NCBI RefSeq assembly: GCF_003991155.1
Contig: NZ_CP031293.1
Source of the DNA: Escherichia coli
GTDB taxonomy: Bacteria; Pseudomonadota; Gammaproteobacteria; Enterobacterales; Enterobacteriaceae
DNA length: 64,000 nt
Strand: one strand, 5' to 3'
The position numbers and the translations under genes are program-made. How positions within the stretch are numbered: the first letter of the stretch is position 1; every line of letters starts with the position of its first letter. This document shows positions 1 to 61,257 of this stretch, one piece after another. The notes beneath the pieces were generated by a model that searched no databases, was not told the origin of the DNA, and worked only from the letters and a program-made list of their open reading frames with translations.

Positions 1-1
1 A

Positions 2-10876: not shown

Positions 10877-10929
10877 GGTGGATCAGGCTAGCGGACCGAT
10901 CGCGCTCAATTTTGCGGCTTGCAACCGGT

Positions 10930-11070
10930 TTGTAGGACGGATAAAAAGTTCAAGCTGCATCTGGCGATACGGTGCGCAATGCCTGATGCGACGCTGTCGC
11001 GTCTTATCATGCCTACGAGTTCGATGCCCTGTGTAGGCCAGATAAGGCGTTTACGCCGCATCCGGCACGC
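10930..11070. repeat. BIME / REP element cluster
   Basis: REP-type palindromic units gcctgatgcgacgctgtcgcgtcttatcatgcctac and tgtaggccagataaggcgtttacgccgcatccggca read from sequence. Confidence 0.7.
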
Positions 11071-11090
11071 AAACGTAATGGAATGCACAA

Positions 11091-11399
11091 ATGGATTATT
11101 TAATTCCAGTTTGTCTGGCATTGCTGGGATTGCTCGCGATCTTCACCCCCAATTGGCTGATCCCTGTTTTTATCGTCGTGGGGGGATGGCTGGGGGTACT
11201 TGCCTGGGGTTGGCTCTGGCTAATGATTTTTTTACCTTTACTTAACGGTGTCGGGCTTGCTTATGCCCTGTGGTTGATGTTCAAAAGGCCATCCATAGCA
11301 TCCCGCCTGGTTGCTGCATGCTGTGTTATCTCCGTCATTCTGATGTTAGCGCTTTATTATGCTTTCCTGACTATGCCGCCGTTCCCGCCTCAGCACTAA
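11091..11399 (+). CDS. Hypothetical small Trp-rich membrane protein (about 3 TM segments)
   Basis: ORF track 102 aa in the convergent tusA/zntA gap, just downstream of the BIME; strongly hydrophobic, coding-like codon usage by eye; weak RBS. Not a gene I recognise. Confidence 0.35.
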   Translation: MDYLIPVCLALLGLLAIFTPNWLIPVFIVVGGWLGVLAWGWLWLMIFLPLLNGVGLAYALWLMFKRPSIASRLVAACCVISVILMLALYYAFLTMPPFPPQH

Positions 11400-11431
11400 G
11401 CCTGATAGCCAGAGGCTATCAGGCAACACTT

Positions 11432-13630
11432 TTACTTCCTGCGCAACAATCTTAACGCATTCGCCGTCACCAGCACCGTCGCACCCGTATCTGCCAGCAC
11501 CGCCAGCCATAGCCCGGTCATTCCTAACAGTGTGGTGACGAGGAAAACGCCTTTCAGCCCCAGCGCAATGGTGATGTTCTGGCGGATATTGGCGTGAGTG
11601 GCGCGTGCCAGTTCAATCATTTGCACCAGACCGCGCAGGTGGTTATGGGTTAATGCTGCATCGGCGGTTTCCAGCGCCACGTCTGTGCCACTGCCCATTG
11701 CAATCCCGATGGCGGCAGCTTTCATCGCTGGCGCGTCGTTAATACCATCACCGACCATCGCCAGCGGCGCATGTTGATTCAGCTCGGTCACCGCTTTGAC
11801 TTTATCTTCCGGCAACAGGCCCGCTTTAAATTCCAGCCCCAACTCCCCGGCAATTGCCGCCGCGGCGCGTGGATTATCGCCGGTGAGGATCACTCCTTTA
11901 ACCCCCAGCGCGTTCAGTTCACTGATAGCAGTTGCAGCATCGGCGCGCAGGGTATCCTGCAACGCAATGACACCCAGCACGTCATCATTACGTACTACCA
12001 GCACTACCGTTTGCCCGGCGCTTTCCAGTTCATTAATCAAACCAGCAAATGCATCAGCAGGATGTTTTCCGGCAGCGCATATCAACACGCGCTCACCGTT
12101 AACCTGCGCTTCAATGCCAGACCCGACCAGCGCCCGCTGTGATTGGGCGGTGGGAATGGCGAGTTCAGCAACCTGTGCTTCGCGCACAATGGCTTGTGCC
12201 AGTGGATGCGTCGCGCCTTGCTCGACCGCCGCCGCCAGTGTCAGCAGTTCAGATTCACTAATACCCGTTGCCGGATGAATCGCGGTAACGCGCGGTTTAC
12301 CGACGGTCAGCGTACCGGTTTTATCAAACGCCACCTGGGTAACACGACCCAGCTGCTCCAGCGCCGCGCCGCCTTTAATCAACGCCCCACGACGCGCTGC
12401 TGCCGCCAGCCCGGAGGTAATCGCCGCGGGCGTGGAGATAACTAACGCACACGGGCAACCAATCAGCAGCAGCGTCAGCCCTTTATAAATCCACTCTTGC
12501 CAGCTGGCGGCAAACAGCAGCGGCGGCACCAGCGTTACCAGCAGGGCGACGGCCATAATCGCTGGCGTATAAATACGGCTGAAGCGGTCGATAAACCGCT
12601 CAATGGGCGCGCGGCGCTCTTCGGCTTCTTCGATCAGTTTCAGAATCCGGTCAATGGCGCTGGCACCCGGTTCTGACAGCACTTCCAGCGTTACCAGACG
12701 GTCTACGCTGGTGGCTCCTGCAGGAACTTTATCGCCCGTTGCGCGCTCCACAGGAATGGATTCGCCGGTCAGGGCGCTTTCATCAAAACTGGCAAACGGT
12801 GAGAGCAGTTTACCGTCGGCAGGCAAACGCCCACCTGCGGCGACTTCAATCACATCGCCAGGGCGCAGGCTGTTAATCGCCACCTCTTCACGCTCACCGT
12901 TACGCAGACGCGTGGCGGTTTCCGGTTTCAGCGCCATTAACGCGCTAACGCCCTGACGCGCGCGGCTGGCGGCCCAGCCTTCCAGTCGTTCACCAATCAA
13001 AAACAGCAGCAACACCATCGCAGCTTCAGCCGTTGCGCCAATAAACAGCGCACCAATAGCGGCTACGCTCATTAACGTTTCAATGGCGAAGTAGCTGCCG
13101 GATTTGATCAGCCGTAATGCCTGACGAGCAATCGGGTACAGCCCAACCAGCGTGGTCGCGATAAACGCCAGTTGCCCGAACGGATGATTGAACTGCTCCA
13201 GACCCCAGCTGATTGCCATCATCACGATTAGCGTAATCAGCGGCAGATTCTCTTTCAGGCGTGATGCTTGTGGTTCGTCGGTAGCCTGTTCATCGCGCAG
13301 GGAATAGCCCGCTTTTTGCACCGCAGATTCAACTTGTGCACGGATGTCATTGTCGGCATCCACCACCAGTTTTTCGGTGGCGAACAACACCTGTACCTGA
13401 TTCACGCCTGCAAGCTGGCGCACGGCATTTTCTACCTTGCGCGCACAGGCGGCGCAGTCCATGCCGCTGACTTTCCAGCTATAGCGGGTGCCGGAGACGT
13501 TTTCAGAGAGCGTTGGCGTGCTGGAACATGCGCCGTCGCAGCAACAGTCGTTGGTGTTCTGTACCGTAGTTAGCGGTTTGAACGCAGCAAAGTGAGGGGC
13601 TTTCTTGCCGTGATTGTCAGGAGTCGACAT
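11432..13630 (-). CDS. zntA: Zn/Cd/Pb-exporting P-type ATPase ZntA
   Basis: ORF track 732 aa; N-terminal GMDCAAC metal-binding motif, CPC transmembrane motif, DKTGTLT phosphorylation site. Confidence 0.95.
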   Translation of the reverse strand: MSTPDNHGKKAPHFAAFKPLTTVQNTNDCCCDGACSSTPTLSENVSGTRYSWKVSGMDCAACARKVENAVRQLAGVNQVQVLFATEKLVVDADNDIRAQVESAVQKAGYSLRDEQATDEPQASRLKENLPLITLIVMMAISWGLEQFNHPFGQLAFIATTLVGLYPIARQALRLIKSGSYFAIETLMSVAAIGALFIGATAEAAMVLLLFLIGERLEGWAASRARQGVSALMALKPETATRLRNGEREEVAINSLRPGDVIEVAAGGRLPADGKLLSPFASFDESALTGESIPVERATGDKVPAGATSVDRLVTLEVLSEPGASAIDRILKLIEEAEERRAPIERFIDRFSRIYTPAIMAVALLVTLVPPLLFAASWQEWIYKGLTLLLIGCPCALVISTPAAITSGLAAAARRGALIKGGAALEQLGRVTQVAFDKTGTLTVGKPRVTAIHPATGISESELLTLAAAVEQGATHPLAQAIVREAQVAELAIPTAQSQRALVGSGIEAQVNGERVLICAAGKHPADAFAGLINELESAGQTVVLVVRNDDVLGVIALQDTLRADAATAISELNALGVKGVILTGDNPRAAAAIAGELGLEFKAGLLPEDKVKAVTELNQHAPLAMVGDGINDAPAMKAAAIGIAMGSGTDVALETADAALTHNHLRGLVQMIELARATHANIRQNITIALGLKGVFLVTTLLGMTGLWLAVLADTGATVLVTANALRLLRRK

Positions 13631-13703
13631 GGCATCCTCCGGTTAAGTTTTTTCTCATTAACCGAAGGATACACTCTGGAGTCGACTCCAGAGTCAAGTT
13701 TTA

Positions 13704-14330
13704 TCAGAGATACAGCGAGCGGACGATGAGGAAATGACCGGCAAAGTAGCAGGCCGCAGCAATCGCGTTATCTGCCCGGAAGCGGCGGCGATAGTGACTA
13801 CCCAGCCAGACAAAGTTACTGATAAATAGCAACGAAGCGCCGACAAACGCAGAGAGCGCCGGAGCGGTCGGACGGAAGAACCACAGTTCACCTGCCAGCC
13901 ACACCATCACCAGCGTCATGCCGATAAACGTGCAGATAGGCCAACGATACTCTTCCAGCCGCGTCCAGATAATCGCCAGTAACAGCGCACCCAGAACCAG
14001 CAACACCAGTGGCAGAGGCCAGAAGAAAGAGAGCGTCATCTGACTGGCGAAATAGATGGTGTACAGCAGGTGCGAGAGGAAAAACGCGCCGATGGCGTAC
14101 ATCAGACGTTGACGTGGCAACAGGGTTAGCGCATCGCCCAGCAGTGAGGCGCACAGTCCCGCCAGCACCAGATAGCTAATGGCGTCGAACATCGGCGCTT
14201 GCCAGGCCAGCAACAGCAGGAGAAGAAGGGTTAATGGTTTAAATACCCAGCGTTGCCAGGTTGGCCCACGATACGATGCATCCACAGATAGCCATGCGGA
14301 AAGACAGACAGCGATAAACGACCAAAGCAT
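13704..14330 (-). CDS. yhhN: Inner membrane protein YhhN
   Basis: ORF track 208 aa polytopic membrane protein; synteny. Confidence 0.88.
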
Positions 14331-14470
14331 CTTAGTTCCTTGAATTCGTTATTTTTTCGTAAGCGGAATGCCTACGGTCTTGCTTCCAGTTTAGTGGCGA
14401 GGGTGGACGGATGACAACACCATAACTGGCAGGGTATGCTTATTTCCGCATTTTCCGATGAGGGATAAAG

Positions 14471-14830
14471 ATGAGTAAACCACCTCTTTTCTTTATTGTT
14501 ATCATTGGCTTAATCATCGTCGCCGCATCGTTTCGTTTTATGCAACAACGACGGGAAAAAGCTGATAATGATATGGCACCGCTCCAGCAAAAGCTGGTGG
14601 TGGTGAGCAACAAGCGGGAAAAACCGATTAACGATCGCCGTTCGCGCCAGCAGGAAGTGACTCCGGCAGGCACCAGTATGCGCTATGAGGCAAGCTTCAA
14701 ACCGCAAAGCGGAGGAATGGAGCAGACGTTTCGCCTCGACGCCCAGCAGTACCACGCCCTGACAGTGGGCGATAAAGGTACGCTGAGCTATAAAGGAACG
14801 CGCTTTGTCAGCTTTGTTGGCGAACAATAA
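14471..14830 (+). CDS. yhhM: DUF2500-family protein YhhM
   Basis: ORF track 119 aa with N-terminal TM helix; synteny. Confidence 0.85.
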   Translation: MSKPPLFFIVIIGLIIVAASFRFMQQRREKADNDMAPLQQKLVVVSNKREKPINDRRSRQQEVTPAGTSMRYEASFKPQSGGMEQTFRLDAQQYHALTVGDKGTLSYKGTRFVSFVGEQ

Positions 14831-14832
14831 GG

Positions 14833-15102
14833 TTATTTTTTAACTTTAAATTTCTTCTGCCAGACCAGCAGTTCAAACACGCCGAAAAGGAAAATGCGCA
14901 CCTTTTCGGCGGTGGTCATCTGCGGGCCATCTTTCGGCAAAGTGGATTTCAATAGCGCCAGCTGCATACCATGCATCAGCACGGTAAAAATCAGCGCCAC
15001 GTTAACAAAAATATTCAGCGGACGTGGGAAGGGATGCACCAGGTTGAGGATTAAAAATCCCCAAACGCAGAGCATTAACAAACGTCCAATATTAATCAAC
15101 AT
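14833..15102 (-). CDS. yhhL: Small membrane protein YhhL (DUF1145)
   Basis: ORF track 14833..15225; start moved to internal Met (MLINIGRLL...) giving 89 aa; stop of rsmD overlaps this start. Confidence 0.78.
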   Translation of the reverse strand: MLINIGRLLMLCVWGFLILNLVHPFPRPLNIFVNVALIFTVLMHGMQLALLKSTLPKDGPQMTTAEKVRIFLFGVFELLVWQKKFKVKK

Positions 15103-15688
15103 CACTTTCTCCTTGTGCTTCGCGTCGATACAGCCGATAAGCCACCTGACCCGCCACTTTTTCCCGATGTAATGACCAGTTCGCCGGAACAGTGGGCAGA
15201 CCGTTTTCGACTTCGCTTTCGACATAAATCAGGGCTTCGTCAGCCAGCCAGCCGTTATCTTCCAGTAAATTTATCGTCTCTTCTAACAATCCACGGCGGA
15301 ACGGTGGATCGACAAACACGATATTATGCGGTGTGCCTTTTTGCGCCAGGAATGACATCGCGTTGCTGTTCACCACGCGTGCATTGCCTGCTTTTAGTGT
15401 CGCCAGATTCTTAATTAACTGCTGAGAAACCACGCGATCCATCTCAATCAACGTGGCCCCCGCAGCGTAGCGCGATAACGCTTCCAGCCCCAGCGCGCCG
15501 CTCCCGGCGAAGCAATCCAGACATTGGGCGTCAACAATGACCGGAGCCAGCCAGTTAAACAACGTTTCGCGTACGCGGTCGGTGGTGGGGCGCAGACCTG
15601 GACTATCAGGAACCGGGAGTTTACGGCCTCGCCACTGCCCGCCAATAATGCGGATTTGGCCGCTGCCGGAATGATTCGGTTTTTTCAT
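15092..15688 (-). CDS. rsmD: 16S rRNA m2G966 methyltransferase RsmD
   Basis: ORF track 198 aa; DPPF motif (VDPPF) typical of N6/N2 methyltransferases; synteny next to ftsY. Confidence 0.9.
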   Translation of the reverse strand: MKKPNHSGSGQIRIIGGQWRGRKLPVPDSPGLRPTTDRVRETLFNWLAPVIVDAQCLDCFAGSGALGLEALSRYAAGATLIEMDRVVSQQLIKNLATLKAGNARVVNSNAMSFLAQKGTPHNIVFVDPPFRRGLLEETINLLEDNGWLADEALIYVESEVENGLPTVPANWSLHREKVAGQVAYRLYRREAQGESDVD

Positions 15689-15837
15689 GATAAATTGCTC
15701 AATCCGCCAGATAACACATACTTGCAGGCGGTGATGTGAATTAAGTTAAGTGATAGACTATTTCATCATTTTTTTAGCTGCTATGTACATAGCGTTAACG
15801 CTGTGCCATGAAGCAACAGCGAGGAGTGTAGTCGCAA

Positions 15838-17325
15838 ATGGCGAAAGAAAAAAAACGTGGCTTTTTTTCCTGGCTGGGCTTTGGTCAAAAAGAGCAGACC
15901 CCGGAAAAAGAGACAGAAGTTCAGAATGAACAACCGGTTGTAGAAGAAATCGTTCAGGCGCAAGAGCCTGTGAAGGCTTCTGAACAAGCCGTTGAAGAGC
16001 AGCCGCAGGCGCATACTGAGGCCGAGGCGGAAACTTTTGCTGCCGACGTTGTGGAAGTCACTGAACAGGTTGCTGAAAGTGAAAAAGCGCAGCCTGAAGC
16101 GGAAGTCGTTGCACAGCCGGAACTGGTCGCAGAAGAAACGCCGGAGCCAGTGGCTATCGAGCGTGAAGAACTGCCGTTGCCGGAAGACGTCAACGCCGAA
16201 GATGTTTCGCCAGAAGAGTGGCAGGCCGAAGCGGAAACCGTAGAGATTGTCGAAGCGGCGGAAGAAGAAGCGGCTAAAGAAGAAATCACCGACGAAGAGC
16301 TGGAAGCACAGGCGCTGGCTGCCGAAGAGGCGGTGATAGTGGTTTCTCCGGCAGAAGAAGAGCAGCCGGTGGAAGAAATCGCTCAGGAGCAGGAAAAACC
16401 GACCAAAGAAGGTTTCTTCGCGCGCCTGAAACGCAGCCTGTTAAAAACCAAAGAAAATCTCGGTTCCGGATTTATCAGCCTGTTCCGCGGTAAAAAAATC
16501 GACGATGATCTGTTTGAAGAGCTGGAAGAACAGCTGTTGATCGCCGATGTGGGCGTGGAAACCACACGTAAAATTATCACCAATCTGACGGAAGGCGCAT
16601 CCCGCAAGCAGCTTCGTGATGCCGAGGCGCTCTATGGCCTGCTGAAAGAAGAGATGGGCGAGATTCTGGCGAAAGTCGATGAGCCGCTGAATGTTGAAGG
16701 TAAAACGCCGTTCGTGATCCTGATGGTGGGCGTCAACGGTGTGGGTAAAACCACGACGATTGGTAAGCTGGCGCGTCAGTTTGAGCAGCAGGGTAAATCG
16801 GTGATGCTGGCGGCAGGCGATACTTTCCGTGCGGCAGCGGTTGAACAGCTTCAGGTCTGGGGTCAGCGCAACAATATTCCGGTGATTGCCCAGCATACCG
16901 GTGCGGATTCCGCTTCTGTTATCTTCGACGCCATTCAGGCCGCTAAAGCGCGTAACATCGACGTCCTGATTGCCGATACCGCCGGACGCCTGCAAAACAA
17001 ATCGCACCTGATGGAAGAGTTGAAGAAAATCGTCCGCGTGATGAAGAAACTCGACGTTGAAGCTCCGCATGAAGTTATGCTGACTATTGATGCCAGCACC
17101 GGGCAGAATGCGGTAAGCCAGGCCAAACTGTTCCACGAAGCCGTTGGCTTAACCGGCATCACGCTAACGAAACTGGACGGCACGGCGAAAGGCGGGGTAA
17201 TTTTCTCGGTGGCTGACCAGTTTGGTATCCCTATCCGCTACATTGGTGTCGGCGAACGTATTGAGGATTTGCGTCCGTTTAAGGCGGACGACTTTATAGA
17301 GGCACTTTTTGCCCGAGAGGATTAA
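15838..17325 (+). CDS. ftsY: Signal recognition particle receptor FtsY
   Basis: ORF track 495 aa; long acidic N-terminal domain, NG domain with GVNGVGKTTT and DTAGR motifs. Confidence 0.95.
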   Translation: MAKEKKRGFFSWLGFGQKEQTPEKETEVQNEQPVVEEIVQAQEPVKASEQAVEEQPQAHTEAEAETFAADVVEVTEQVAESEKAQPEAEVVAQPELVAEETPEPVAIEREELPLPEDVNAEDVSPEEWQAEAETVEIVEAAEEEAAKEEITDEELEAQALAAEEAVIVVSPAEEEQPVEEIAQEQEKPTKEGFFARLKRSLLKTKENLGSGFISLFRGKKIDDDLFEELEEQLLIADVGVETTRKIITNLTEGASRKQLRDAEALYGLLKEEMGEILAKVDEPLNVEGKTPFVILMVGVNGVGKTTTIGKLARQFEQQGKSVMLAAGDTFRAAAVEQLQVWGQRNNIPVIAQHTGADSASVIFDAIQAAKARNIDVLIADTAGRLQNKSHLMEELKKIVRVMKKLDVEAPHEVMLTIDASTGQNAVSQAKLFHEAVGLTGITLTKLDGTAKGGVIFSVADQFGIPIRYIGVGERIEDLRPFKADDFIEALFARED

Positions 17326-17327
17326 CA

Positions 17328-17996
17328 ATGATTCGCTTTGAACATGTCAGCAAGGCTTATCTCGGTGGGAGACAGGCGCTGCAGGGCGTTACGTTCCATA
17401 TGCAGCCGGGTGAGATGGCGTTTCTGACCGGTCATTCCGGCGCAGGGAAAAGTACCCTCCTGAAGCTGATCTGTGGGATTGAGCGGCCCAGCGCCGGGAA
17501 AATCTGGTTTAGCGGCCATGACATCACGCGTCTGAAAAACCGTGAAGTTCCGTTTCTGCGCCGCCAGATTGGCATGATTTTCCAGGATCACCATCTACTG
17601 ATGGACCGTACTGTCTACGATAATGTGGCGATCCCGCTGATTATCGCCGGTGCCAGCGGTGACGATATTCGTCGCCGGGTGTCGGCGGCACTGGATAAAG
17701 TCGGGCTACTGGACAAAGCGAAGAACTTTCCTATTCAGCTTTCCGGCGGTGAACAACAACGTGTTGGCATTGCCCGCGCGGTGGTGAACAAGCCTGCGGT
17801 ACTGCTGGCGGATGAACCGACCGGTAACCTGGACGACGCGTTGTCGGAAGGCATTTTACGTCTGTTTGAAGAGTTTAACCGCGTTGGGGTAACCGTATTG
17901 ATGGCAACGCACGACATCAACCTGATCTCGCGGCGTTCCTATCGCATGCTCACCCTGAGCGATGGTCACTTGCATGGAGGCGTGGGCCATGAATAA
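17328..17996 (+). CDS. ftsE: Cell division ABC ATPase FtsE
   Basis: ORF track 222 aa; Walker [10 protein letters not shown], signature LSGGEQQR. Confidence 0.95.
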
Positions 17997-19047
17997 GCGC
18001 GATGCAATCAATCATATTCGGCAGTTTGGCGGGCGTCTGGATCGCTTCCGTAAATCGGTCGGCGGCTCTGGCGACGGCGGTCGTAACGCGCCAAAACGGG
18101 CGAAATCCTCGCCAAAACCGGTAAATCGCAAAACCAACGTTTTCAACGAACAGGTGCGCTATGCCTTCCACGGCGCATTGCAGGATCTGAAAAGCAAACC
18201 GTTCGCCACGTTTTTAACGGTGATGGTTATCGCCATCTCCCTGACGCTGCCCAGCGTCTGTTATATGGTGTACAAAAACGTTAACCAGGCGGCGACGCAA
18301 TATTATCCGTCACCGCAAATCACTGTTTATCTGCAAAAAACGCTGGACGATGACGCCGCTGCGGGCGTGGTGGCACAGTTGCAGGCCGAGCAAGGCGTGG
18401 AGAAAGTGAATTATCTTTCTCGTGAAGACGCACTGGGCGAGTTCCGTAACTGGTCTGGTTTTGGTGGTGCGCTGGATATGCTGGAAGAAAACCCGCTTCC
18501 GGCAGTGGCGGTGGTGATCCCGAAACTCGATTTTCAGGGGACGGAATCACTGAATACGCTGCGTGATCGTATCACCCAGATCAACGGCATTGACGAAGTG
18601 CGGATGGATGACAGCTGGTTTGCCCGTCTGGCGGCGTTAACCGGGCTGGTCGGGCGCGTTTCCGCGATGATCGGCGTGTTGATGGTGGCAGCAGTGTTCC
18701 TCGTCATCGGTAACAGTGTGCGCCTGAGTATCTTTGCTCGCCGTGACTCCATTAACGTGCAGAAACTGATTGGTGCGACGGATGGTTTCATCCTGCGCCC
18801 GTTCCTATACGGAGGCGCATTGCTGGGATTTTCTGGCGCATTGTTGTCATTAATTTTGTCAGAAATTCTGGTGCTGCGATTGTCATCGGCGGTTGCGGAA
18901 GTGGCGCAGGTTTTCGGAACGAAGTTTGATATCAATGGTTTATCGTTCGATGAATGCCTGCTATTGCTGCTGGTATGCTCGATGATTGGCTGGGTGGCAG
19001 CGTGGCTTGCCACGGTACAACATTTACGCCACTTTACGCCTGAATAA
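17989..19047 (+). CDS. ftsX: Cell division ABC permease-like protein FtsX
   Basis: ORF track 17962..19047; start moved to ATG at 17989 ([12 protein letters not shown]), overlapping the ftsE stop; 352 aa. Confidence 0.93.
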
Positions 19048-19063
19048 TAAAAGCGTGTTATAC

Positions 19064-19099
19064 TCTTTCCCTGCAATGGGTTCCGTAGCAGGGAAAGAG
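19064..19099 (+). terminator. Perfect 12-bp-stem hairpin downstream of ftsX (no T-tract)
   Basis: ctctttccctgc ... gcagggaaagag read directly; lacks a following U-run so termination efficiency is uncertain. Confidence 0.4.
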
Positions 19100-19149
19100 A
19101 CCCCGTTGTCTCTTCCCGGTATTTCATCTCTATGTCACATTTTGTGCGT

Positions 19150-19291
19150 AATTTATTCACAGCGTTGCATTGAACTTGTGGATAAAATCACTGTCTGATA
19201 AAACAGTGAATGATAACCTCGTTGCTCTTAAGCTCTGGCACAGTTGTTGCTACCACTGAAGCGCCAGAAGATATCGATTGAGAGGATTTGA
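19150..19291 (+). promoter_or_regulatory. rpoH upstream promoter region (multiple promoters expected)
   Basis: Established knowledge that rpoH is driven by several promoters upstream of the ORF; exact elements not resolved here. Confidence 0.45.
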
Positions 19292-20146
19292 ATGACTGAC
19301 AAAATGCAAAGTTTAGCTTTAGCCCCAGTTGGCAACCTGGATTCCTACATCCGGGCAGCTAACGCGTGGCCGATGTTGTCGGCTGACGAGGAGCGGGCGC
19401 TGGCTGAAAAGCTGCATTACCATGGCGATCTGGAAGCAGCTAAAACGCTGATCCTGTCTCACCTGCGGTTTGTTGTTCATATTGCTCGTAATTATGCGGG
19501 CTATGGCCTGCCACAGGCGGATTTGATTCAGGAAGGTAACATCGGCCTGATGAAAGCAGTGCGCCGTTTTAACCCGGAAGTGGGTGTGCGCCTGGTCTCC
19601 TTCGCCGTTCACTGGATCAAAGCAGAGATCCACGAATACGTTCTGCGCAACTGGCGTATCGTCAAAGTTGCGACCACCAAAGCGCAGCGCAAACTGTTCT
19701 TCAACCTGCGTAAAACCAAGCAGCGTCTGGGCTGGTTTAACCAGGATGAAGTCGAAATGGTGGCCCGTGAACTGGGTGTAACCAGCAAAGACGTACGTGA
19801 GATGGAATCACGTATGGCGGCACAGGACATGACCTTTGACCTGTCTTCCGACGACGATTCCGACAGCCAGCCGATGGCTCCGGTGCTCTATCTGCAGGAT
19901 AAATCATCTAACTTTGCCGACGGCATCGAAGATGATAACTGGGAAGAGCAGGCGGCAAACCGTCTGACCGACGCGATGCAAGGTCTGGACGAGCGTAGCC
20001 AGGATATCATCCGCGCGCGCTGGCTGGACGAAGACAACAAGTCCACGTTGCAGGAACTGGCTGACCGTTACGGCGTTTCCGCTGAGCGTGTGCGCCAGCT
20101 GGAAAAGAACGCGATGAAAAAATTGCGCGCTGCCATTGAAGCGTAA
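19292..20146 (+). CDS. rpoH: RNA polymerase sigma-32 factor RpoH
   Basis: ORF track 284 aa; sigma-70 family regions 2 and 4, RpoH box-like segment. Confidence 0.97.
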
Positions 20147-20162
20147 TTTCCGCTATTAAGCA

Positions 20163-20200
20163 GAGAACCCTGGATGAGAGTCCGGGGTTTTTGTTTTTTG
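20163..20200 (+). terminator. Rho-independent terminator after rpoH
   Basis: GC-rich imperfect hairpin (ccctgga...tccgggg) followed by tttttgttttttg. Confidence 0.6.
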
Positions 20201-20417
20201 GGCCTCTACAATAATCAGTTTCCCCCTCCGGCAAAACGCCAATCCCCACGCAGATTGTTAATAAACTGTCAAAATAGCTATTCCAATATCATAAAAATGG
20301 GGTATGTTTTAGCAGAGTATGCTGCTAAAGCACGGGTAGCTACGTATAAAACGAAATAAAGTGCTGCACAACAACATCACAACACACGTAATAACCAGAA
20401 GAGTGGGGATTCTCAGG

Positions 20418-21521
20418 ATGAACATAAAGGGTAAAGCGTTACTGGCAGGATGTATCGCGCTGGCATTCAGCAATATGGCTCTGGCAGAAGATATTAAAGT
20501 CGCGGTCGTGGGCGCAATGTCCGGTCCGGTAGCCCAGTACGGTGACCAGGAGTTTACTGGTGCTGAGCAGGCGGTTGCGGATATCAATGCTAAAGGCGGC
20601 ATTAAAGGCAACAAACTGCAAATCGTGAAATATGACGATGCCTGTGACCCGAAACAGGCGGTTGCGGTGGCGAACAAAGTCGTTAACGACGGCATTAAAT
20701 ACGTGATTGGTCACCTCTGCTCTTCATCAACGCAGCCAGCGTCTGACATCTACGAAGACGAAGGCATTTTAATGATCACCCCAGCGGCAACCGCACCAGA
20801 GCTGACCGCCCGTGGCTATCAGCTGATCCTGCGCACCACCGGCCTGGACTCCGACCAGGGGCCGACGGCGGCGAAATATATTCTTGAGAAAGTGAAACCG
20901 CAACGCATTGCTATCGTTCACGACAAACAGCAGTACGGCGAAGGTCTGGCGCGTGCAGTGCAGGACGGCCTGAAGAAAGGCAATGCTAACGTGGTGTTCT
21001 TTGATGGTATCACCGCTGGGGAAAAAGATTTCTCAACCCTGGTGGCGCGTCTGAAGAAAGAGAATATCGACTTCGTTTACTACGGTGGTTATCACCCGGA
21101 AATGGGGCAAATCCTGCGTCAGGCACGCGCGGCAGGGTTGAAAACTCAGTTTATGGGGCCGGAAGGTGTGGCTAACGTTTCGCTGTCTAACATTGCGGGC
21201 GAATCAGCGGAAGGGCTGCTGGTGACCAAGCCGAAGAACTACGATCAGGTTCCGGCGAACAAACCCATTGTTGATGCGATCAAAGCGAAAAAACAGGACC
21301 CAAGCGGCGCGTTCGTCTGGACCACCTACGCCGCGCTGCAATCTTTGCAAGCGGGGCTGAATCAGTCTGACGATCCGGCGGAGATCGCTAAATACCTGAA
21401 AGCGAACTCGGTTGATACGGTGATGGGGCCGCTTAGCTGGGATGAGAAAGGCGATCTGAAAGGCTTTGAGTTCGGTGTGTTTGACTGGCACGCCAACGGC
21501 ACGGCGACTGATGCGAAGTAA
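20418..21521 (+). CDS. livJ: Leu/Ile/Val-binding periplasmic protein LivJ
   Basis: ORF track 20361..21521; start moved to [11 protein letters not shown] giving 367 aa; paralog of downstream LivK. Confidence 0.95.
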
Positions 21522-21579
21522 TCATTAATCGGCAACTTTGGGTTGCCGCCAAATTGCTAATATCGAGTACGTTGCTTCA

Positions 21580-21682
<103 letters not shown>

Positions 21683-21720
21683 TTCTCGTTGGTCATCACT
21701 TTTGAAATCAAACTTGACGA

Positions 21721-22104
21721 TTAACGCTTCTCCCAGCCACCCTGTTGTGCCGTAAATCCCAGTGCTCGCATAAACGCCGTCATCACGCCGCGATCTTCCA
21801 CGCCAGCATCCGCCATCCACCAACATGAAACGCCAGGATTGTTACGCAAAACCTCTTCCAGCAGATATTGCCCCACACCGCGACGTCGGGTGACTTCCCG
21901 CACGCGTAGAGAATCCAGTGCCCCCTCGGTGCCGCTTAAGGTTACCCGCACGGCAGCGAGCAGGCGCTCGTTAAAACGCGCGGCGTAGATACGGTGGTTA
22001 TCGTCAACCTGTAAAGAGGAAGGGGAATACTCCGGCCAGATCTTTTGCAGGTCAATCCGGTCCTGGTCGCTAAAGTTTTCTAATCGAATGATGGTCAGCT
22101 TCAT
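21721..22104 (-). CDS. panM: PanD maturation factor PanM (GNAT fold)
   Basis: ORF track 127 aa; synteny between livJ and livK. Confidence 0.88.
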   Translation of the reverse strand: MKLTIIRLENFSDQDRIDLQKIWPEYSPSSLQVDDNHRIYAARFNERLLAAVRVTLSGTEGALDSLRVREVTRRRGVGQYLLEEVLRNNPGVSCWWMADAGVEDRGVMTAFMRALGFTAQQGGWEKR

Positions 22105-22527
22105 GGGGAACCCGTGTAAATCACAAAAGTGGAACCAGTGTAGCGAAATAATTTAATCGGAGGCTTTCTCTTTTTTATTTCTTTTGGCAGGTGATTAATT
22201 TTTTTTCAGCAATAATTACAAAGTTAAAACATTAGAGAATGAAAAATATCCAGCATAATCCCCTAAATGGTAGTGAATTATTCTGCCCTTTGTACCGTTA
22301 TTTTATGCTGACAACGGCGCTTTTTTCTGTTTATCTATCAATAAATTCAGAATATTATCTGTTCTTAATTGACTGAAAAATAGGGATTTTAATCGCTATC
22401 ATCACAAAATGCTGCGCTAAACCCTTAATCAGACAGGTAAAAACAGTGCAGTATAAAAAAAGAACAGTTTGATTTGTTAACACATAAAAACAAAGCAACA
22501 CAACATCACGAATGGGGATTTTTGACT

Positions 22528-23637
22528 ATGAAACGGAATGCGAAAACTATCATCGCAGGGATGATTGCACTGACAATTTCACACACCGCTATGGCTGACG
22601 ATATTAAAGTCGCCGTTGTCGGCGCGATGTCCGGCCCGATTGCCCAGTGGGGCGATATGGAATTTAACGGCGCGCGTCAGGCAATTAAAGACATTAATGC
22701 CAAAGGGGGAATTAAGGGCGATAAACTGGTTGGCGTGGAATATGACGACGCCTGCGACCCGAAACAAGCCGTTGCGGTCGCCAACAAAATCGTTAACGAC
22801 GGCATTAAATATGTTATTGGTCATCTGTGTTCCTCCTCTACCCAACCTGCATCAGATATCTATGAAGACGAAGGTATTCTGATGATCTCGCCGGGAGCGA
22901 CCAATCCGGAGCTGACCCAACGCGGTTATCAATACATCATGCGTACTGCCGGGCTGGACTCTTCCCAGGGGCCAACGGCGGCAAAATACATTCTTGAGAC
23001 GGTGAAGCCCCAGCGCATCGCCATCATTCACGACAAACAACAGTATGGCGAAGGACTGGCACGTTCGGTGCAGGACGGGCTGAAAGCGGCTAACGCCAAC
23101 GTCGTCTTCTTCGACGGCATTACCGCTGGAGAGAAAGATTTCTCCGCGCTGATCGCCCGCCTGAAAAAAGAAAACATCGACTTCGTTTACTACGGCGGTT
23201 ACTACCCGGAAATGGGGCAGATGCTGCGCCAGGCCCGTTCCGTTGGCCTGAAAACCCAGTTTATGGGGCCGGAAGGTGTGGGTAATGCGTCGTTGTCGAA
23301 TATTGCTGGCGATGCTGCCGAAGGCATGTTGGTCACTATGCCAAAACGCTATGACCAGGATCCGGCAAACCAGGGCATCGTTGATGCGCTGAAAGCAGAC
23401 AAGAAAGATCCATCCGGGCCATATGTCTGGATCACCTACGCGGCGGTGCAATCTCTGGCAACAGCCCTTGAGCGTATCGGCAGCGATGAGCCGCTGGCGC
23501 TGGTGAAAGATTTAAAAGCTAACGGTGCAAATACCGTGATTGGGCCGCTGAACTGGGATGAAAAAGGCGATCTTAAGGGATTTGATTTTGGTGTCTTCCA
23601 GTGGCACGCCGACGGTTCATCCACGGCAGCCAAGTGA
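22528..23637 (+). CDS. livK: Leucine-specific binding protein LivK
   Basis: ORF track 22474..23637; start moved to [11 protein letters not shown] giving 369 aa. Confidence 0.95.
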
Positions 23638-23684
23638 TCATCCCACCGCCCGTGAAAAACGGGCGGGTTTAGAAAGGTTACCTT

Positions 23685-24611
23685 ATGTCTGAGCAGTTTT
23701 TGTATTTCTTGCAGCAGATGTTTAACGGCGTCACGCTGGGCAGTACCTACGCGCTGATAGCCATCGGCTACACCATGGTTTACGGCATTATCGGCATGAT
23801 CAACTTCGCCCACGGTGAGGTTTATATGATCGGCAGCTACGTCTCCTTTATGATCATCGCTGCACTGATGATGCTGGGAATTGATACCGGCTGGCTGCTG
23901 GTGGCGGCGGGATTCGTTGGCGCAATCGTCATTGCCAGCGCCTACGGCTGGAGTATCGAACGGGTGGCCTATCGCCCGGTGCGTAACTCTAAGCGCCTGA
24001 TTGCGCTCATCTCGGCAATCGGCATGTCCATCTTCCTGCAAAACTACGTCAGCCTGACCGAAGGTTCGCGCGACGTGGCGCTACCCAGCCTGTTTAACGG
24101 TCAGTGGGTTGTGGGCCATAGTGAAAACTTCTCTGCCTCTATTACCACCATGCAGGCGGTGATCTGGATTGTTACTTTCCTCGCCATGCTGGCGCTGACG
24201 ATTTTCATTCGCTATTCCCGCATGGGGCGCGCCTGTCGTGCCTGCGCGGAAGATCTGAAAATGGCGAGCCTGCTTGGCATCAACACCGATCGGGTGATTG
24301 CGCTGACCTTTGTGATTGGCGCGGCGATGGCGGCGGTGGCGGGTGTGCTGCTCGGTCAGTTCTACGGCGTAATTAACCCCTACATCGGCTTTATGGCCGG
24401 GATGAAAGCCTTTACCGCTGCGGTGCTCGGTGGGATTGGCAGCATTCCGGGAGCGATGATTGGCGGCCTGATTCTGGGGATTGCGGAGGCGCTCTCTTCT
24501 GCCTATCTGAGTACGGAATATAAAGATGTGGTCTCATTCGCCCTGCTGATTCTGGTGTTGCTGGTGATGCCGACCGGTATTCTGGGTCGCCCGGAGGTAG
24601 AGAAAGTATGA
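23685..24611 (+). CDS. livH: Branched-chain amino acid ABC permease LivH
   Basis: ORF track 308 aa membrane protein. Confidence 0.95.
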
Positions 24612-25885
24612 AACCGATGCATATTGCAATGGCGCTGCTCTCTGCCGCTATGTTCTTTGTGCTGGCGGGCGTCTTTATGGGCGTGCAACTGGAGCTGGAT
24701 GGCACCAAACTGGTGGTCGACACGGCTTCAGAGATCCGTTGGCAGTGGGTGTTTATCGGCACGGCGGTGGTCTTTTTCTTCCAGCTTTTGCGACCGGCTT
24801 TCCAGAAAGGGCTAAAAAGCGTTTCCGGGCCGAAGTTTATTCTGCCCGCGATTGATGGCTCCACGGTGAAGCAGAAACTGTTCCTCGTGGCGCTGCTGGT
24901 GCTTGCGGTGGCGTGGCCGTTTATGGTGTCACGCGGGACGGTGGATATCGCCACCCTGACCATGATCTACATTATTCTTGGTCTCGGGCTGAACGTGGTG
25001 GTAGGGCTTTCTGGTCTGCTGGTGCTGGGATACGGCGGCTTTTACGCCATCGGCGCTTACACTTTTGCGCTGCTCAATCACTATTACGGTCTGGGCTTCT
25101 GGACCTGTCTGCCGATTGCCGGGTTGATGGCGGCGGCGGCGGGCTTCCTGCTCGGCTTCCCGGTGTTGCGTCTGCGCGGTGACTATCTGGCGATCGTTAC
25201 CCTCGGTTTCGGCGAAATTGTGCGCATATTGCTGCTCAATAACACTGAAATCACCGGCGGTCCGAACGGAATCAGTCAGATCCCCAAACCGACACTCTTC
25301 GGACTCGAGTTCAGTCGTACTGCCCGCGAAGGCGGCTGGGACACGTTCAGTAATTTCTTTGGCCTGAAATACGATCCCTCCGATCGCGTCATTTTCCTCT
25401 ACCTGGTGGCGTTGCTGCTGGTGGTGTTAAGCCTGTTTGTCATTAACCGCCTGCTGCGGATGCCGCTGGGCCGCGCGTGGGAAGCGTTGCGTGAAGATGA
25501 AATCGCTTGTCGTTCGCTGGGCTTAAGCCCGCGTCGTATCAAGCTGACTGCTTTTACCATCAGTGCCGCGTTTGCCGGTTTTGCCGGAACGCTGTTCGCG
25601 GCGCGTCAGGGCTTTGTCAGTCCGGAATCCTTCACCTTTGCCGAATCGGCGTTTGTGCTGGCGATAGTGGTGCTCGGCGGTATGGGCTCGCAATTTGCAG
25701 TGATTCTGGCGGCAGTTCTGCTGGTGGTATCGCGCGAGTTGATGCGTGATTTCAACGAATACAGCATGTTAATGCTCGGTGGTTTGATGGTGCTGATGAT
25801 GATCTGGCGTCCGCAGGGTTTGCTGCCCATGACGCGCCCGCAACTCAAGCTGAAAAACGGCGCAGCAAAAGGAGAGCAGGCATGA
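24608..25885 (+). CDS. livM: Branched-chain amino acid ABC permease LivM
   Basis: ORF track 425 aa membrane protein; 4-nt overlap with livH. Confidence 0.95.
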
Positions 25886-26649
25886 GTCAGCCATTATTAT
25901 CTGTTAACGGCCTGATGATGCGCTTCGGCGGCCTGCTGGCGGTGAACAACGTCAATCTCGAACTGTACCCGCAGGAGATCGTCTCGTTAATCGGCCCTAA
26001 CGGTGCCGGAAAAACCACGGTCTTCAACTGCCTGACCGGATTCTATAAACCCACCGGCGGCACCATTTTACTGCGCGATCAGCATCTGGAAGGTTTACCG
26101 GGGCAGCAAATTGCCCGCATGGGCGTGGTGCGCACCTTCCAGCATGTACGTCTGTTCCGTGAAATGACGGTGATTGAAAACCTGCTGGTGGCACAGCATC
26201 AGCAACTGAAAACCGGGCTGTTCTCCGGCCTGTTGAAAACACCCTCTTTCCGTCGCGCCCAGAGCGAAGCGCTCGACCGCGCCGCCACCTGGCTTGAGCG
26301 CATTGGTTTGCTGGAACATGCCAACCGTCAGGCGAGTAACCTGGCCTATGGTGACCAGCGCCGTCTGGAGATTGCCCGCTGTATGGTGACGCAGCCGGAG
26401 ATTTTAATGCTCGACGAACCGGCAGCAGGTCTTAACCCGAAAGAGACGAAAGAGCTGGATGAGCTGATTGCCGAACTGCGTAACCATCACAACACCACTA
26501 TCTTGTTGATTGAACATGATATGAAGCTGGTGATGGGGATTTCAGACAGAATTTACGTGGTCAATCAGGGGACGCCGCTGGCAAACGGTACACCGGAGCA
26601 GATCCGTAATAACCCGGACGTGATCCGTGCCTATTTAGGTGAGGCATAA
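25882..26649 (+). CDS. livG: Branched-chain amino acid ABC ATPase LivG
   Basis: ORF track 255 aa; Walker [10 protein letters not shown]. Confidence 0.95.
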
Positions 26650-26650
26650 G

Positions 26651-27364
26651 ATGGAAAAAGTCATATTGTCCTTTGACAAAGTCAGCGCCCACTACGGCAA
26701 AATCCAGGCGCTGCATGAGGTGAGCCTGCATATCAATCAGGGCGAGATTGTCACCCTCATTGGCGCGAACGGGGCGGGGAAAACCACCTTGCTCAGCACG
26801 TTATGCGGCGATCCGCGCGCCACCAGTGGGCGAATTGTGTTTGATGATAAAGACATTACCGACTGGCAGACAGCGAAAATCATGCGCGAAGCGGTGGCGA
26901 TTGTTCCGGAAGGGCGTCGTGTTTTCTCGCGGATGACGGTGGAAGAGAACCTGGCGATGGGCGGCTTTTTTGCCGAACGCGACCAGTTCCAGGAGCGCAT
27001 AAAGTGGGTCTATGAACTGTTTCCACGTCTGCATGAGCGCCGTATTCAGCGGGCGGGCACCATGTCCGGCGGTGAACAGCAGATGCTGGCGATTGGTCGC
27101 GCGCTGATGAGCAATCCGCGTTTGTTGTTACTTGATGAGCCATCGCTCGGTCTTGCGCCGATTATCATCCAGCAAATTTTCGACACCATCGAGCAGCTGC
27201 GCGAGCAGGGGATGACTATCTTCCTCGTCGAGCAGAACGCCAACCAGGCGCTAAAGCTGGCGGATCGCGGCTACGTGCTGGAAAACGGTCATGTTGTGCT
27301 CTCCGATACTGGTGATGCGCTGCTGGCGAACGAAGCGGTGAGAAATGCGTATTTAGGCGGGTAA
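26651..27364 (+). CDS. livF: Branched-chain amino acid ABC ATPase LivF
   Basis: ORF track 26639..27364; start moved to MEKVILSF giving 237 aa; Walker A GANGAGKTT. Confidence 0.95.
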   Translation: MEKVILSFDKVSAHYGKIQALHEVSLHINQGEIVTLIGANGAGKTTLLSTLCGDPRATSGRIVFDDKDITDWQTAKIMREAVAIVPEGRRVFSRMTVEENLAMGGFFAERDQFQERIKWVYELFPRLHERRIQRAGTMSGGEQQMLAIGRALMSNPRLLLLDEPSLGLAPIIIQQIFDTIEQLREQGMTIFLVEQNANQALKLADRGYVLENGHVVLSDTGDALLANEAVRNAYLGG

Positions 27365-27424
27365 TAACACGTTGATTGATAAGGAGTCAAAAGACTCCTT
27401 TGAGACAGGTTACAAATGTAAAAT

Positions 27425-27527
<103 letters not shown>

Positions 27528-27619
27528 AAACGATGAGCAATCTGTAGAGTTTGATTCAGACCTTCTATTTTTCCCGCTTATCCGTGCCCCATCTCCCATT
27601 TTCCCTCGCCCGCGCCGTC

Positions 27620-27730
27620 ACCGCCTTGTCATCTTTCTGACACCTTACTATCTTAAAAATGTAACAAAAAAGTTATTTTTCTGTAATTCGAGCATGTCAT
27701 GTTACCCCGCGAGCATAAAACGCGTGAATT
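27620..27730 (+). promoter_or_regulatory. ugpB promoter region with Pho-box-like repeats
   Basis: ttgtcat-cttt-ctgacac at 27626..27643 and ctgtaat...catgtcat around 27681..27705 resemble PhoB boxes; ugp is an established Pho regulon operon. Confidence 0.5.
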
Positions 27731-27761
27731 CGCGCATTCGGTACAACAAGAGAGATAAACG

Positions 27762-29078
27762 ATGAAACCGTTACATTATACAGCTTCAGCACTGGCGCTC
27801 GGACTGGCGTTAATGGGGAATGCACAGGCAGTGACGACCATTCCGTTCTGGCATTCTATGGAAGGGGAACTGGGTAAAGAGGTGGATTCTCTGGCCCAAC
27901 GTTTTAACGCCGAAAACCCGGATTACAAAATTGTACCGACCTATAAAGGCAACTACGAACAGAATTTAAGCGCGGGGATTGCCGCATTTCGTACCGGCAA
28001 CGCTCCGGCTATTTTGCAGGTTTATGAAGTTGGCACCGCCACCATGATGGCGTCGAAAGCCATTAAACCGGTGTATGACGTATTTAAAGAGGCGGGGATT
28101 CAATTCGATGAGTCGCAGTTTGTGCCGACGGTTTCCGGTTACTACTCCGACAGCAAAACTGGGCACTTACTTTCCCAGCCGTTCAACAGTTCGACCCCCG
28201 TTCTCTATTACAACAAAGACGCCTTCAAGAAAGCAGGATTAGACCCGGAACAACCGCCGAAAACCTGGCAGGATCTGGCGGACTATGCCGCAAAACTGAA
28301 AGCCTCCGGTATGAAGTGCGGCTACGCCAGCGGCTGGCAGGGATGGATCCAACTGGAAAACTTTAGCGCCTGGAACGGTTTGCCGTTTGCCAGCAAAAAC
28401 AACGGCTTTGACGGCACAGACGCGGTGCTTGAGTTCAACAAGCCGGAGCAGGTGAAACACATCGCCATGCTCGAAGAGATGAACAAGAAGGGCGATTTCA
28501 GCTACGTTGGGCGTAAGGATGAATCCACTGAGAAGTTCTATAACGGTGATTGCGCGATGACGACCGCCTCTTCCGGTTCTCTTGCCAACATTCGCGAGTA
28601 CGCCAAATTTAACTATGGCGTAGGCATGATGCCTTACGATGCCGATGCGAAAGACGCGCCGCAAAACGCCATTATCGGCGGAGCCAGTCTATGGGTAATG
28701 CAGGGTAAAGATAAAGAAACCTACACCGGCGTGGCGAAGTTCCTCGACTTCCTCGCAAAGCCAGAAAACGCTGCCGAGTGGCATCAGAAAACCGGCTATC
28801 TGCCAATCACTAAAGCGGCGTATGACCTGACCCGTGAGCAGGGCTTTTACGAGAAAAACCCAGGGGCGGATACCGCGACGCGTCAGATGCTGAACAAGCC
28901 GCCGTTGCCGTTCACCAAAGGGCTGCGTCTGGGCAACATGCCGCAGATCCGCGTGATTGTGGATGAAGAGCTGGAGAGCGTGTGGACCGGTAAGAAGACG
29001 CCACAGCAGGCGCTGGATACCGCCGTTGAGCGTGGGAATCAGTTACTGCGCCGCTTTGAGAAATCGACGAAGTCTTAA
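27762..29078 (+). CDS. ugpB: sn-glycerol-3-phosphate-binding periplasmic protein UgpB
   Basis: ORF track 438 aa with signal peptide. Confidence 0.95.
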
Positions 29079-29087
29079 TCAGTGTAA

Positions 29088-29157
29088 TGTCGGATGCGTT
29101 TCGCTTATCTGACCTGGCATCGCGTGTAGGCCGGATAAGCGAAGCGCATCCGGCACA
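29088..29157. repeat. REP element pair
   Basis: gtcggatgcgtttcgcttatctgacc and tgtaggccggataagcgaagcgcatccggca read from sequence. Confidence 0.65.
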
Positions 29158-29175: not shown

Positions 29176-30063
29176 ATGTCATCATCCCGTCCGGTGTTCC
29201 GCTCGCGCTGGCTGCCTTATCTGCTGGTCGCGCCGCAGCTCATCATCACCGTTATCTTTTTTATCTGGCCTGCGGGTGAAGCGTTGTGGTACTCGCTGCA
29301 AAGTGTCGATCCGTTTGGTTTTTCCAGCCAGTTTGTCGGCCTGGATAACTTCGTCACGCTGTTTCATGACAGCTATTATCTCGACTCCTTCTGGACGACG
29401 ATAAAATTCAGCACCTTTGTCACCGTCAGCGGTTTGCTGGTGTCACTGTTCTTCGCGGCGTTGGTGGAGTACATCGTGCGCGGCAGCCGTTTCTATCAAA
29501 CCTTAATGCTGCTGCCTTACGCTGTGGCTCCCGCCGTTGCCGCCGTATTATGGATCTTCCTGTTTAACCCTGGTCGCGGGCTGATCACCCATTTTCTCGC
29601 TGAGTTCGGCTACGACTGGAACCACGCGCAAAACAGCGGTCAGGCAATGTTTCTGGTGGTGTTTGCCTCAGTATGGAAGCAAATCAGCTACAACTTCCTG
29701 TTCTTCTATGCCGCGCTGCAATCCATTCCCCGTTCGTTGATCGAAGCCGCAGCCATCGACGGTGCAGGGCCGATTCGCCGCTTCTTTAAGATTGCGCTGC
29801 CGCTTATCGCCCCGGTGAGTTTCTTCCTGCTGGTAGTGAACCTGGTGTATGCCTTCTTCGACACCTTCCCGGTGATCGACGCCGCCACGTCCGGCGGGCC
29901 GGTTCAGGCCACCACGACGCTGATTTATAAGATCTACCGCGAAGGTTTTACCGGACTGGATCTGGCTTCGTCTGCCGCACAGTCGGTGGTGTTGATGTTC
30001 CTCGTCATCGTGCTGACGGTGGTGCAGTTCCGCTATGTTGAAAGCAAGGTGCGTTACCAATGA
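29176..30063 (+). CDS. ugpA: G3P ABC permease UgpA
   Basis: ORF track 295 aa membrane protein. Confidence 0.95.
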
Positions 30064-38386: not shown

Positions 38387-38505
38387 TTGATCTTTCGTTT
38401 TCAAATTATCCACGGGAAGTGCTTGTGTTCGTTATGCGCACTCCAGTAGGAACCACGTCCGCTTTGCGCTAAGGTGTAAATAACCCCCTTAAAAAGGACG
38501 AAATC

Positions 38506-61255: not shown

Positions 61256-61257
61256 AG

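Follow-up and report, generated by a model that had tools for sequence, protein, structure and literature searches.

The 64,000-nucleotide (nt) stretch of the Escherichia coli chromosome analysed here (contig NZ_CP031293.1, hereafter the window) contains four clusters of repetitive extragenic palindromic (REP) sequences, found between tusA and zntA (site 1), livJ and panM (site 2), livF and ugpB (site 3) and ugpB and ugpA (site 4). Judged by their sequence, these are genuine copies of REPs and bacterial interspersed mosaic elements (BIMEs), a known family and an ordinary one. All of the elements found belong to known families: REP, BIME-1 (RIP/RIB), BIME-2-like and, as an alternative allele, BoxC/TMECO. 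Semi-selfish extragenic repeats, acting through RNA structure where they are transcribed, are very probably the best explanation of the four clusters as a whole. The pair at site 4 is predicted to fold into a long hairpin within the ugpBAECQ mRNA, which may influence how much of each transporter component is made.

Identity of the nine REP units

A fuzzy gapped regular expression (GCC[G/T]GATGCG, 2-22 nt, CTTATC[A/C]GGCCTAC) found eight REP units in the window, all within the four clusters, against a chance expectation of about 0.1 matches per window in first-order Markov simulations of the window. An nhmmer profile recovered the same eight units and a ninth, decayed one at 29089-29115. As the profile derives from copies in the window itself, its recovery of the seven strong units is to that extent circular. 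Beyond the nine units the best other nhmmer match in the 64 kb had only E=3, and no further REP cluster was found. The units are as follows, with identities given to the published 34-nt REP consensus GCCGGATGCGGCGTGAACGCCTTATCCGGCCTAC.

10932-10965, minus strand: site 1, decayed Y-type REP (GCCAGATGCAGCTTGAACTTTTTATCCGTCCTAC); regular expression with 4 substitutions, nhmmer E=0.043, identity 27/34
10981-11016, plus strand: site 1, Z2-type REP of 36 nt with a GCCTGATG head and a long stem; regular expression, nhmmer, self-fold -14.8 kcal/mol
11033-11066, minus strand: site 1, Y-type REP; identity 32/34, self-fold -19.1 kcal/mol, regular expression, nhmmer
21581-21614, plus strand: site 2, Y-type REP; identity 33/34, self-fold -21.3 kcal/mol, regular expression, nhmmer
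21651-21679, minus strand: site 2, Z1-type REP of 29 nt; regular expression, nhmmer, self-fold -13.2 kcal/mol
27426-27454, plus strand: site 3, Z1-type REP; regular expression, nhmmer, alignment to site 2
27491-27524, minus strand: site 3, Y-type REP; identity 33/34, regular expression, nhmmer
29089-29119, plus strand: site 4, decayed REP (GTCGGATGCGTTTCGCTTATCTGACCTGGCA); nhmmer E=0.012, identity 23/34, self-fold -9.5 kcal/mol
29126-29154, minus strand: site 4, short REP with a Y-type head and a Z1-length loop (GCCGGATGCGCTTCGCTTATCCGGCCTAC); exact regular-expression match, nhmmer E=1.6e-6, self-fold -14.7 kcal/mol

The three good Y units are identical to the consensus at 33, 33 and 32 of 34 positions, and the Z-type and short units, in which the loop differs in length, at 27-28 of 34. 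When compared with the family pattern of a GCC[G/T]GATG head and a CTTATC[C/A]GGCCTAC tail, the latter including the conserved CTAC/GTAG, seven units carry 0-1 substitutions in head and tail and the two decayed units carry 4-5 (the count for the unit at 29089 was read by eye). The conserved CTAC tail is present in the units, and eight of the nine form an imperfect palindrome with one internal unpaired position, with self-folds of -9.5 to -21.3 kcal/mol. In the remaining unit, at 10932-10965, folding has been lost (self-fold -0.2 kcal/mol). Unit orientation alternates within clusters, as in BIMEs. The short Z unit is presumed here to be Z1 and the longer one Z2. The definitions of the Y, Z1 and Z2 types, of BIME-1 as Y, Z1 and an L linker with an integration host factor (IHF) site, and of BIME-2 as Y and Z2, follow published usage (PMC3333891; PMC1187871).

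The elements are also multicopy, as queries containing the site 2 or the site 3 element match a median of at least 40 and at least 29 places per E. coli genome, respectively. The site 4 pair matched a median of one place per genome as a megablast query, for which it is too short and too diverged. Rfam has no REP family, and site 4 gave only a sub-threshold match there, to naRNA4, which is derived from REP325. A T-run follows none of the nine units, and none was flagged by a consensus terminator scan.

Although the units at 10932-10965 and 29089-29119 are weak when taken singly, the idea that these are chance palindromes can safely be rejected, since eight matches were found where about 0.1 were expected, the two weak units occupy exactly the partner positions expected in a BIME, and better-preserved orthologues of both exist in other strains or species.

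Gene context was taken from the annotation of NZ_CP029747.1 (E. coli 2016C-3878), in which the window corresponds to the reverse complement of 4,084,498-4,148,497 and from which it differs by one base over all 64 kb, at 34625. All nine units lie between annotated coding sequences. The flanking genes are:

10631-10876, plus strand: tusA (annotation)
11091-11399, plus strand: hypothetical 102-amino-acid open reading frame (ORF), WP_000385055.1 (annotation and ORF list)
11432-13630, minus strand: zntA (annotation)
20418-21521, plus strand: livJ (annotation)
21721-22104, minus strand: panM (annotation)
26651-27364, plus strand: livF (annotation)
27762-29078, plus strand: ugpB (annotation)
29176-30063, plus strand: ugpA (annotation)

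A first-pass annotation made from the letters of the window had placed REP-type palindromes at these four junctions, and its coordinates prove correct to within 1-4 nt; the gene names it gave agree with the annotation. It had proposed alignment to a REP consensus as the check on its reading, and the Y units do align, at 32-33 of 34 positions and by both nhmmer and the regular expression. Its description of the elements as ordinary for E. coli is borne out in that three of the four sites are alike in kind in K-12.

The ugpB-ugpA spacer and its predicted hairpin

The genes ugpB and ugpA belong to the known ugpBAECQ operon, from which their co-transcription may be presumed. They lie on the same strand, separated by a 97-nt spacer that contains no terminator-like site, with the first REP directly 3' of ugpB. 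The two inverted units are predicted to fold together:

29089-29154, plus strand: predicted long hairpin in the ugpBAECQ mRNA (RNA fold of the two inverted units)

The predicted stem is near-perfect over about 30 bp, with a minimum free energy (MFE) of -52.6 kcal/mol (z = -7.1), and 0 of 200 shuffled sequences were equally stable. A gap of 10 nt separates it from the ugpB stop codon upstream, and one of 21 nt from the ugpA start downstream. The unit at 29089-29119 has a better-preserved orthologue in Pseudocitrobacter faecalis.

Strain distributions were counted among 5,426 complete E. coli genomes. The REP pair is present at ugpB/ugpA in 5,104 of these (94%), and in 318 (6%) it is replaced by an inverted pair of BoxC elements, so that one or other of the two accounts for 5,422 genomes; no sampled E. 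coli genome had an empty site. In strain LH10-b-1 a deletion (equivalent to about 28990-29140) has taken out the first REP together with the last ~28 codons of ugpB and its stop codon, so that ugpB is joined to the second REP, and the annotated coding sequence is 1,233 bp rather than 1,317 bp.

The functional steps set out here we infer from the identity, arrangement, predicted folds and strain distribution of the elements. In the ugp transcript the inverted pair would most likely fold into the ~30-bp hairpin just past the ugpB stop. Such a hairpin would block 3'-to-5' exonucleases, allowing the ugpB segment to outlive the ugpAECQ part of the message, and the longer-lived segment would yield more binding protein than membrane subunits. 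REPs at hisJ-hisQ and malE-malF have reportedly been found to change expression, by Higgins in 1982 and Newbury in 1987. Site 4 resembles both of these in following a gene for a periplasmic binding protein, preceding the first gene for a membrane subunit of an ATP-binding cassette (ABC) importer and having a stable hairpin. It differs from them in that one unit is decayed and the stable form is a duplex between units rather than two REP hairpins. By this analogy, stabilisation of the ugpB segment by the site 4 hairpin is on balance the outcome we would expect, if by a modest degree. That this copy may set differential mRNA stability had been suggested in the first-pass annotation, and the evidence fits the suggestion, short of proof, because the hairpin is very stable, a hairpin allele is present in 5,422 of 5,426 genomes, and the spacer is structured in most of the 79 Enterobacterales compared. 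A literature search found nothing relevant on a REP or hairpin at ugpB-ugpA and no data on ugp mRNA decay.

The comparison across Enterobacterales set the ugpB-ugpA spacers of 79 species against controls of equal length from upstream of ugpB. Median spacer length is 106 nt, median MFE is -0.454 kcal/mol per nt compared with -0.167 in the controls, and z falls below -3 in 57 of the 79. What fills the spacer varies: at least 16 carry a species-specific REP pair (in Klebsiella, Citrobacter and Enterobacter), at least 14 carry BoxC-like elements (as inverted pairs, for instance in Phytobacter, Kluyvera and Leclercia), and in others there is a unique hairpin. In E. coli, E. albertii and P. faecalis the right arm of the site 4 pair is invariant, and almost all departures of the left arm from its perfect complement are C-to-T changes, a kind that leaves G.U pairs intact in the sense RNA; a T2/A24 double change reads by eye as compensatory for the local hairpin. 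One reading of this pattern is that ugpB-ugpA has been selected for a strong hairpin as such, with each lineage supplying whichever palindromic repeat it happens to carry. We regard this as a serious possibility, albeit one that falls a little short of being favoured.

Several observations weigh against a selected or essential role. Spacers of Pectobacterium, Dickeya and some other taxa show no significant structure (z around 0). The C-to-T bias amounts to about six events, of a type that is in any case the most frequent mutation. In the REP-pair spacers of different species, covariation between the arms is to be expected regardless of selection on RNA structure, because both arms are drawn from one species-specific repeat family. 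A structured spacer could simply mark the operon's only sizeable non-coding gap, permissive for palindromic selfish repeats. Across the four sites BIMEs are displaced by unrelated DNA in 6-85% of strains, which speaks for all four being dispensable.

These points bear on the possibility that the repeats are neutral selfish DNA, tolerated where they insert, and that the structured ugp spacer reflects repeated colonisation rather than selection. Alleles without REPs exist at all four sites, BIMEs are enriched in strain-specific loops (PMC1187871), REP, BoxC and other families alternate at the ugp site, and sites 1 and 4 each contain one decaying unit, all of which neutrality would accommodate. 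It accounts less well for the lack of any empty ugpB-ugpA site, 5,422 of 5,426 genomes having one of the two hairpin alleles, or for the hairpin mostly being kept even in species whose spacers are not made of repeats. The decay of the left arm at site 4, biased to changes that preserve pairing in the sense RNA, and the malE-malF and hisJ-hisQ precedents for an effect of REPs so placed on expression also count against it, and we consider neutrality a minority explanation which nevertheless deserves to be kept in view.

The hairpin might also act on translation. REP-dependent stalling of ribosomes has been described for REPs no more than 15 nt from a stop codon (Liang, Rudd and Deutscher 2015, as relayed in PMC12306157). 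Only site 4 lies within that distance, the other sites being 41-61 nt from the nearest stop. With only those 10 nt between it and the end of ugpB, the hairpin may conceivably impede terminating ribosomes, although by analogy this appears appreciably less probable than stabilisation of the mRNA; the two effects are compatible with each other. A stronger version would make translation the main effect, with stalled terminating ribosomes, less UgpB, mRNA cleavage and rescue by transfer-messenger RNA (tmRNA) in place of stabilisation. The 10-nt distance, inside the limit relayed in PMC12306157, and the great stability of the hairpin speak for it. However, less binding protein than membrane subunits would be the opposite of the usual stoichiometry of ABC importers, which is established knowledge, and in other species the distance from the stop to the first paired base (from a fold of the whole spacer, a rough proxy) ranges over 0-14 nt and does not look tuned. 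We think it less likely than not, though worth keeping in view, that translation is where the hairpin mainly acts, and retain stabilisation of the ugpB segment as the preferred reading.

The BIMEs at the other three junctions

Sites 2 and 3 each consist of one Y and one Z1 unit, inverted, with a long L-type linker between them, which is the architecture of BIME-1. The two are colinear across the units, the linker and the immediate flanks, and are mutually inverted in orientation. Besides the units, three features matter here:

21615-21650, no strand assigned: site 2 L-type linker, 36 bp (colinear alignment with the site 3 linker)
27455-27490, no strand assigned: site 3 L-type linker, 36 bp (alignment to site 2)
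27381-27400, plus strand: hairpin downstream of livF, AAGGAGUC-AAAA-GACUCCUU (RNA fold), located between the livF stop, 17 nt away, and the BIME-1

Like known BIME-1 (RIP/RIB) elements, both join a 34-nt Y to a 29-nt Z1, tail-to-tail and in single copy, through a 36-bp linker that bears a WATCAR-N4-TTR-type motif, and there is no structural difference from that class. The site 2 linker contains AATCAGTAAATTG at 21627-21639, an exact match to the IHF consensus WATCARNNNNTTR, and the minus strand of the site 3 linker contains AAATTCAATATATTG, with one mismatch. The motif suggests a possible role for IHF but is weak evidence by itself, with 12 matches in the window where 4.1 are expected.

The BIMEs lie 59 nt from the livJ stop, 41 nt from the panM stop and 61 nt from the livF stop, and RNA folding predicts simple hairpins in the interval that separates each BIME from the livJ or livF stop codon. 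The one at 27381-27400 is likely, on the folding model, to be the end of the liv transcript; the terminator scan missed it because its U-run is short.

These hairpins bear on a further alternative, in which tusA, livJ/panM, livF and ugpB are terminated Rho-independently at the palindromes, and these are not a repeat family at all. The units are G+C-rich hairpins at gene ends, and a canonical T-run terminator stands behind livJ in the strains in which the site 2 BIME is missing, which implies that a terminator is needed there. However, none of the units is followed by a T-run or passed the terminator scan, their sequence fits the REP consensus and is found tens of times in each genome, and at sites 2 and 3 separate simple hairpins already stand ahead of the BIMEs, on the side of the stop codons. 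At site 4, ugpA follows in the same operon, and full termination there would abolish the transporter. The terminator explanation is accordingly rejected as very improbable.

REPs as a family are targets of dedicated mobile elements and enzymes, among them IS1397, IS621 and TnpA-REP/RAYT. In strain M7424, IS1397 (IS3 family) has inserted into the loop of the orthologue of the site 2 Y unit, at the equivalent of 21595-21597 and flanked by a GTAT duplication. Insertion of IS1397 into REPs has been demonstrated experimentally (PMC1525189), and recognition by a REP-specific element was seen at site 2 alone, in the form of this natural insertion.

All four sites proved to have alternative alleles when compared across strains, a check that had been proposed in the first-pass annotation. 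The site 2 BIME-1 is present in 3,743 genomes, a count obtained with a query of the flanks only, for which all sampled spans included the extra ~100-110 bp. About 28-30% (17 of 60 evenly spaced rows) carry instead an ataR-ataT toxin-antitoxin module without a REP, among them O157:H7 EDL933 and ST131 EC958. It is in this allele that the canonical T-run terminator follows livJ (window equivalent 21522-21720). In the ataRT allele ataT overlaps panM by 4 bp, at the 3' end of panM. The site 3 BIME-1 occurs in at least 4,629 genomes, and 659 genomes, including O157:H7, have a segment of ~1 kb with a tetratricopeptide-repeat (TPR) gene, which, upstream of the ugp promoter, takes the place of both the BIME-1 and the livF terminator hairpin (window equivalent 27365-27580). 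The product of this gene is a 248-amino-acid tetratricopeptide-repeat protein (strains 20R2R and O157:H7 PV15-279).

Site 1 is a cluster of three units, BIME-2-like or atypical by its sequence, in the order Y'-Z2-Y, where Y' is the decayed unit. It starts 55 nt after the tusA stop. The Z2 unit is head-to-head with the decayed Y across a 15-bp spacer and tail-to-tail with the next Y across a 16-bp spacer. The cluster resembles BIME-2 in the alternation of Y and Z2, in its short spacers of 15-16 bp and in a unit number that varies with lineage, related Escherichia having 3 or 4. It differs from BIME-2 in having only 1.5 repeats, one of the Y units being decayed and unfoldable. BIME-2 elements are targets of DNA gyrase, which may by analogy act at site 1 too. 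Other E. coli strains carry better-kept orthologues of the unit at 10932-10965; E. marmotae has a partial one (27 nt, E=0.001).

Between this cluster and zntA lies the 102-amino-acid ORF, so that the BIME is not directly at the convergence of tusA and zntA. Its product is very hydrophobic and has no matching family in Pfam or NCBIfam. Homologues of equal length (84-98% identical) are found solely in Escherichia, namely E. coli, E. marmotae and cryptic clades, with fragments in E. albertii. The ORF occurs in this arrangement in 264 of the 5,426 genomes and at the equivalent position in E. marmotae, and it looks like an ancestral Escherichia gene that has been lost from most E. coli. The first-pass annotation had described each site as a convergent junction or operon end. 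This description fails at tusA/zntA owing to the intervening ORF at 11091-11399, and needs amending for livF/ugpB, a tandem junction in which an operon end is followed by the next promoter region.

The same annotation had treated the tusA/zntA copy as part of the core region, and here the strain counts disagree. The arrangement in the window, three REPs with the ORF, is found in 4.9% of genomes (those same 264), and any BIME at this junction in about 15%. A further 527 genomes have BoxC and three REPs without the ORF, and the K-12 type, with BoxC alone and neither REP nor ORF, accounts for 4,575 genomes (84%). The K-12 BoxC is TMECO no. 16, at 3,608,684-3,608,719 (Holder et al. 2015). In E. 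marmotae BoxC, three REPs and the ORF are present together, and the site 1 BIME is therefore old and appears to have been lost by deletion in most E. coli. The sequence common to K-12 and the window ends precisely at the edge of the first REP. TusA ends ...RKSG* in the window and ...RKGG* in K-12, and the BoxC/TMECO that K-12, E. marmotae and the 527-genome allele have downstream of tusA is missing from the window allele. The difference at the end of tusA and the missing BoxC (10860-10930) place an allelic-replacement breakpoint within the 3' end of tusA.

BoxC elements (PIT/TMECO; G+C-rich palindromic or triplex-forming) occupy similar locations to REPs and form an alternative allele at tusA/zntA and ugpB/ugpA. 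They are unrelated to REP as a sequence family, and the window has none at any of the four sites. Bachellier is said to have reported in 1997 that BIME-bearing spacers are polymorphic. Such polymorphism is on record in any case (PMC1187871). As non-coding semi-selfish repeats that would persist at gene ends, REPs and BIMEs would serve as substrates for REP-specific recombination and insertion, which could explain why all four sites vary among strains. Where transcribed, they would act via RNA structure, and sites 1-3 are likely to act as barriers at 3' ends or as insulators that keep adjacent transcription units apart. They are likely also to serve as protein-binding DNA, with IHF at the two BIME-1 elements and gyrase at the Y/Z2 cluster.

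Other features of the window and significance of the repeats

The sole Rfam family that reaches its gathering score in the window is RyhB (RF00057, 83 bits), the small RNA gene at 38323-38387 on the plus strand between yhhX and yhhY. By annotation, a HicA/HicB toxin-antitoxin pair (1-519, plus strand) adjoins nikR, and an Hcp1-family (tssD) gene lies at 36269-37447 on the minus strand with yrhA/yrhB remnants. Between gntU and yhgN, at 43730-47028 on the plus strand, are two genes that overlap, one with the annotation RecQ-family helicase and the other DprA-like protein. K-12 presumably has nothing at this position, and the pair may represent an island specific to the strain and perhaps a defence system. 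The interval from glgP to glpD holds two genes for PstS-family phosphate-binding proteins and one hypothetical gene (58729-61863, plus strand), a region that is presumably strain-variable when set against K-12.

As a discovery the four clusters carry little weight, REPs and BIMEs having been known since the 1980s and three of the four copies being present in K-12. Their value for annotation is that they account for palindromes which are not coding. The four junctions also mark places where strains differ by whole segments, namely BoxC, the ataRT module, the TPR gene and a small Escherichia-specific ORF. If ugpB-ugpA is indeed selected for a strong hairpin as such, the spacer would be a case of natural structural turnover, in which selfish repeats have been serially domesticated for one RNA function, and two unrelated hairpin alleles would be segregating there within E. 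coli. Having two unrelated natural hairpin alleles, ugpB-ugpA would provide a tidy test of whether a hairpin sets the stoichiometry of an ABC importer.

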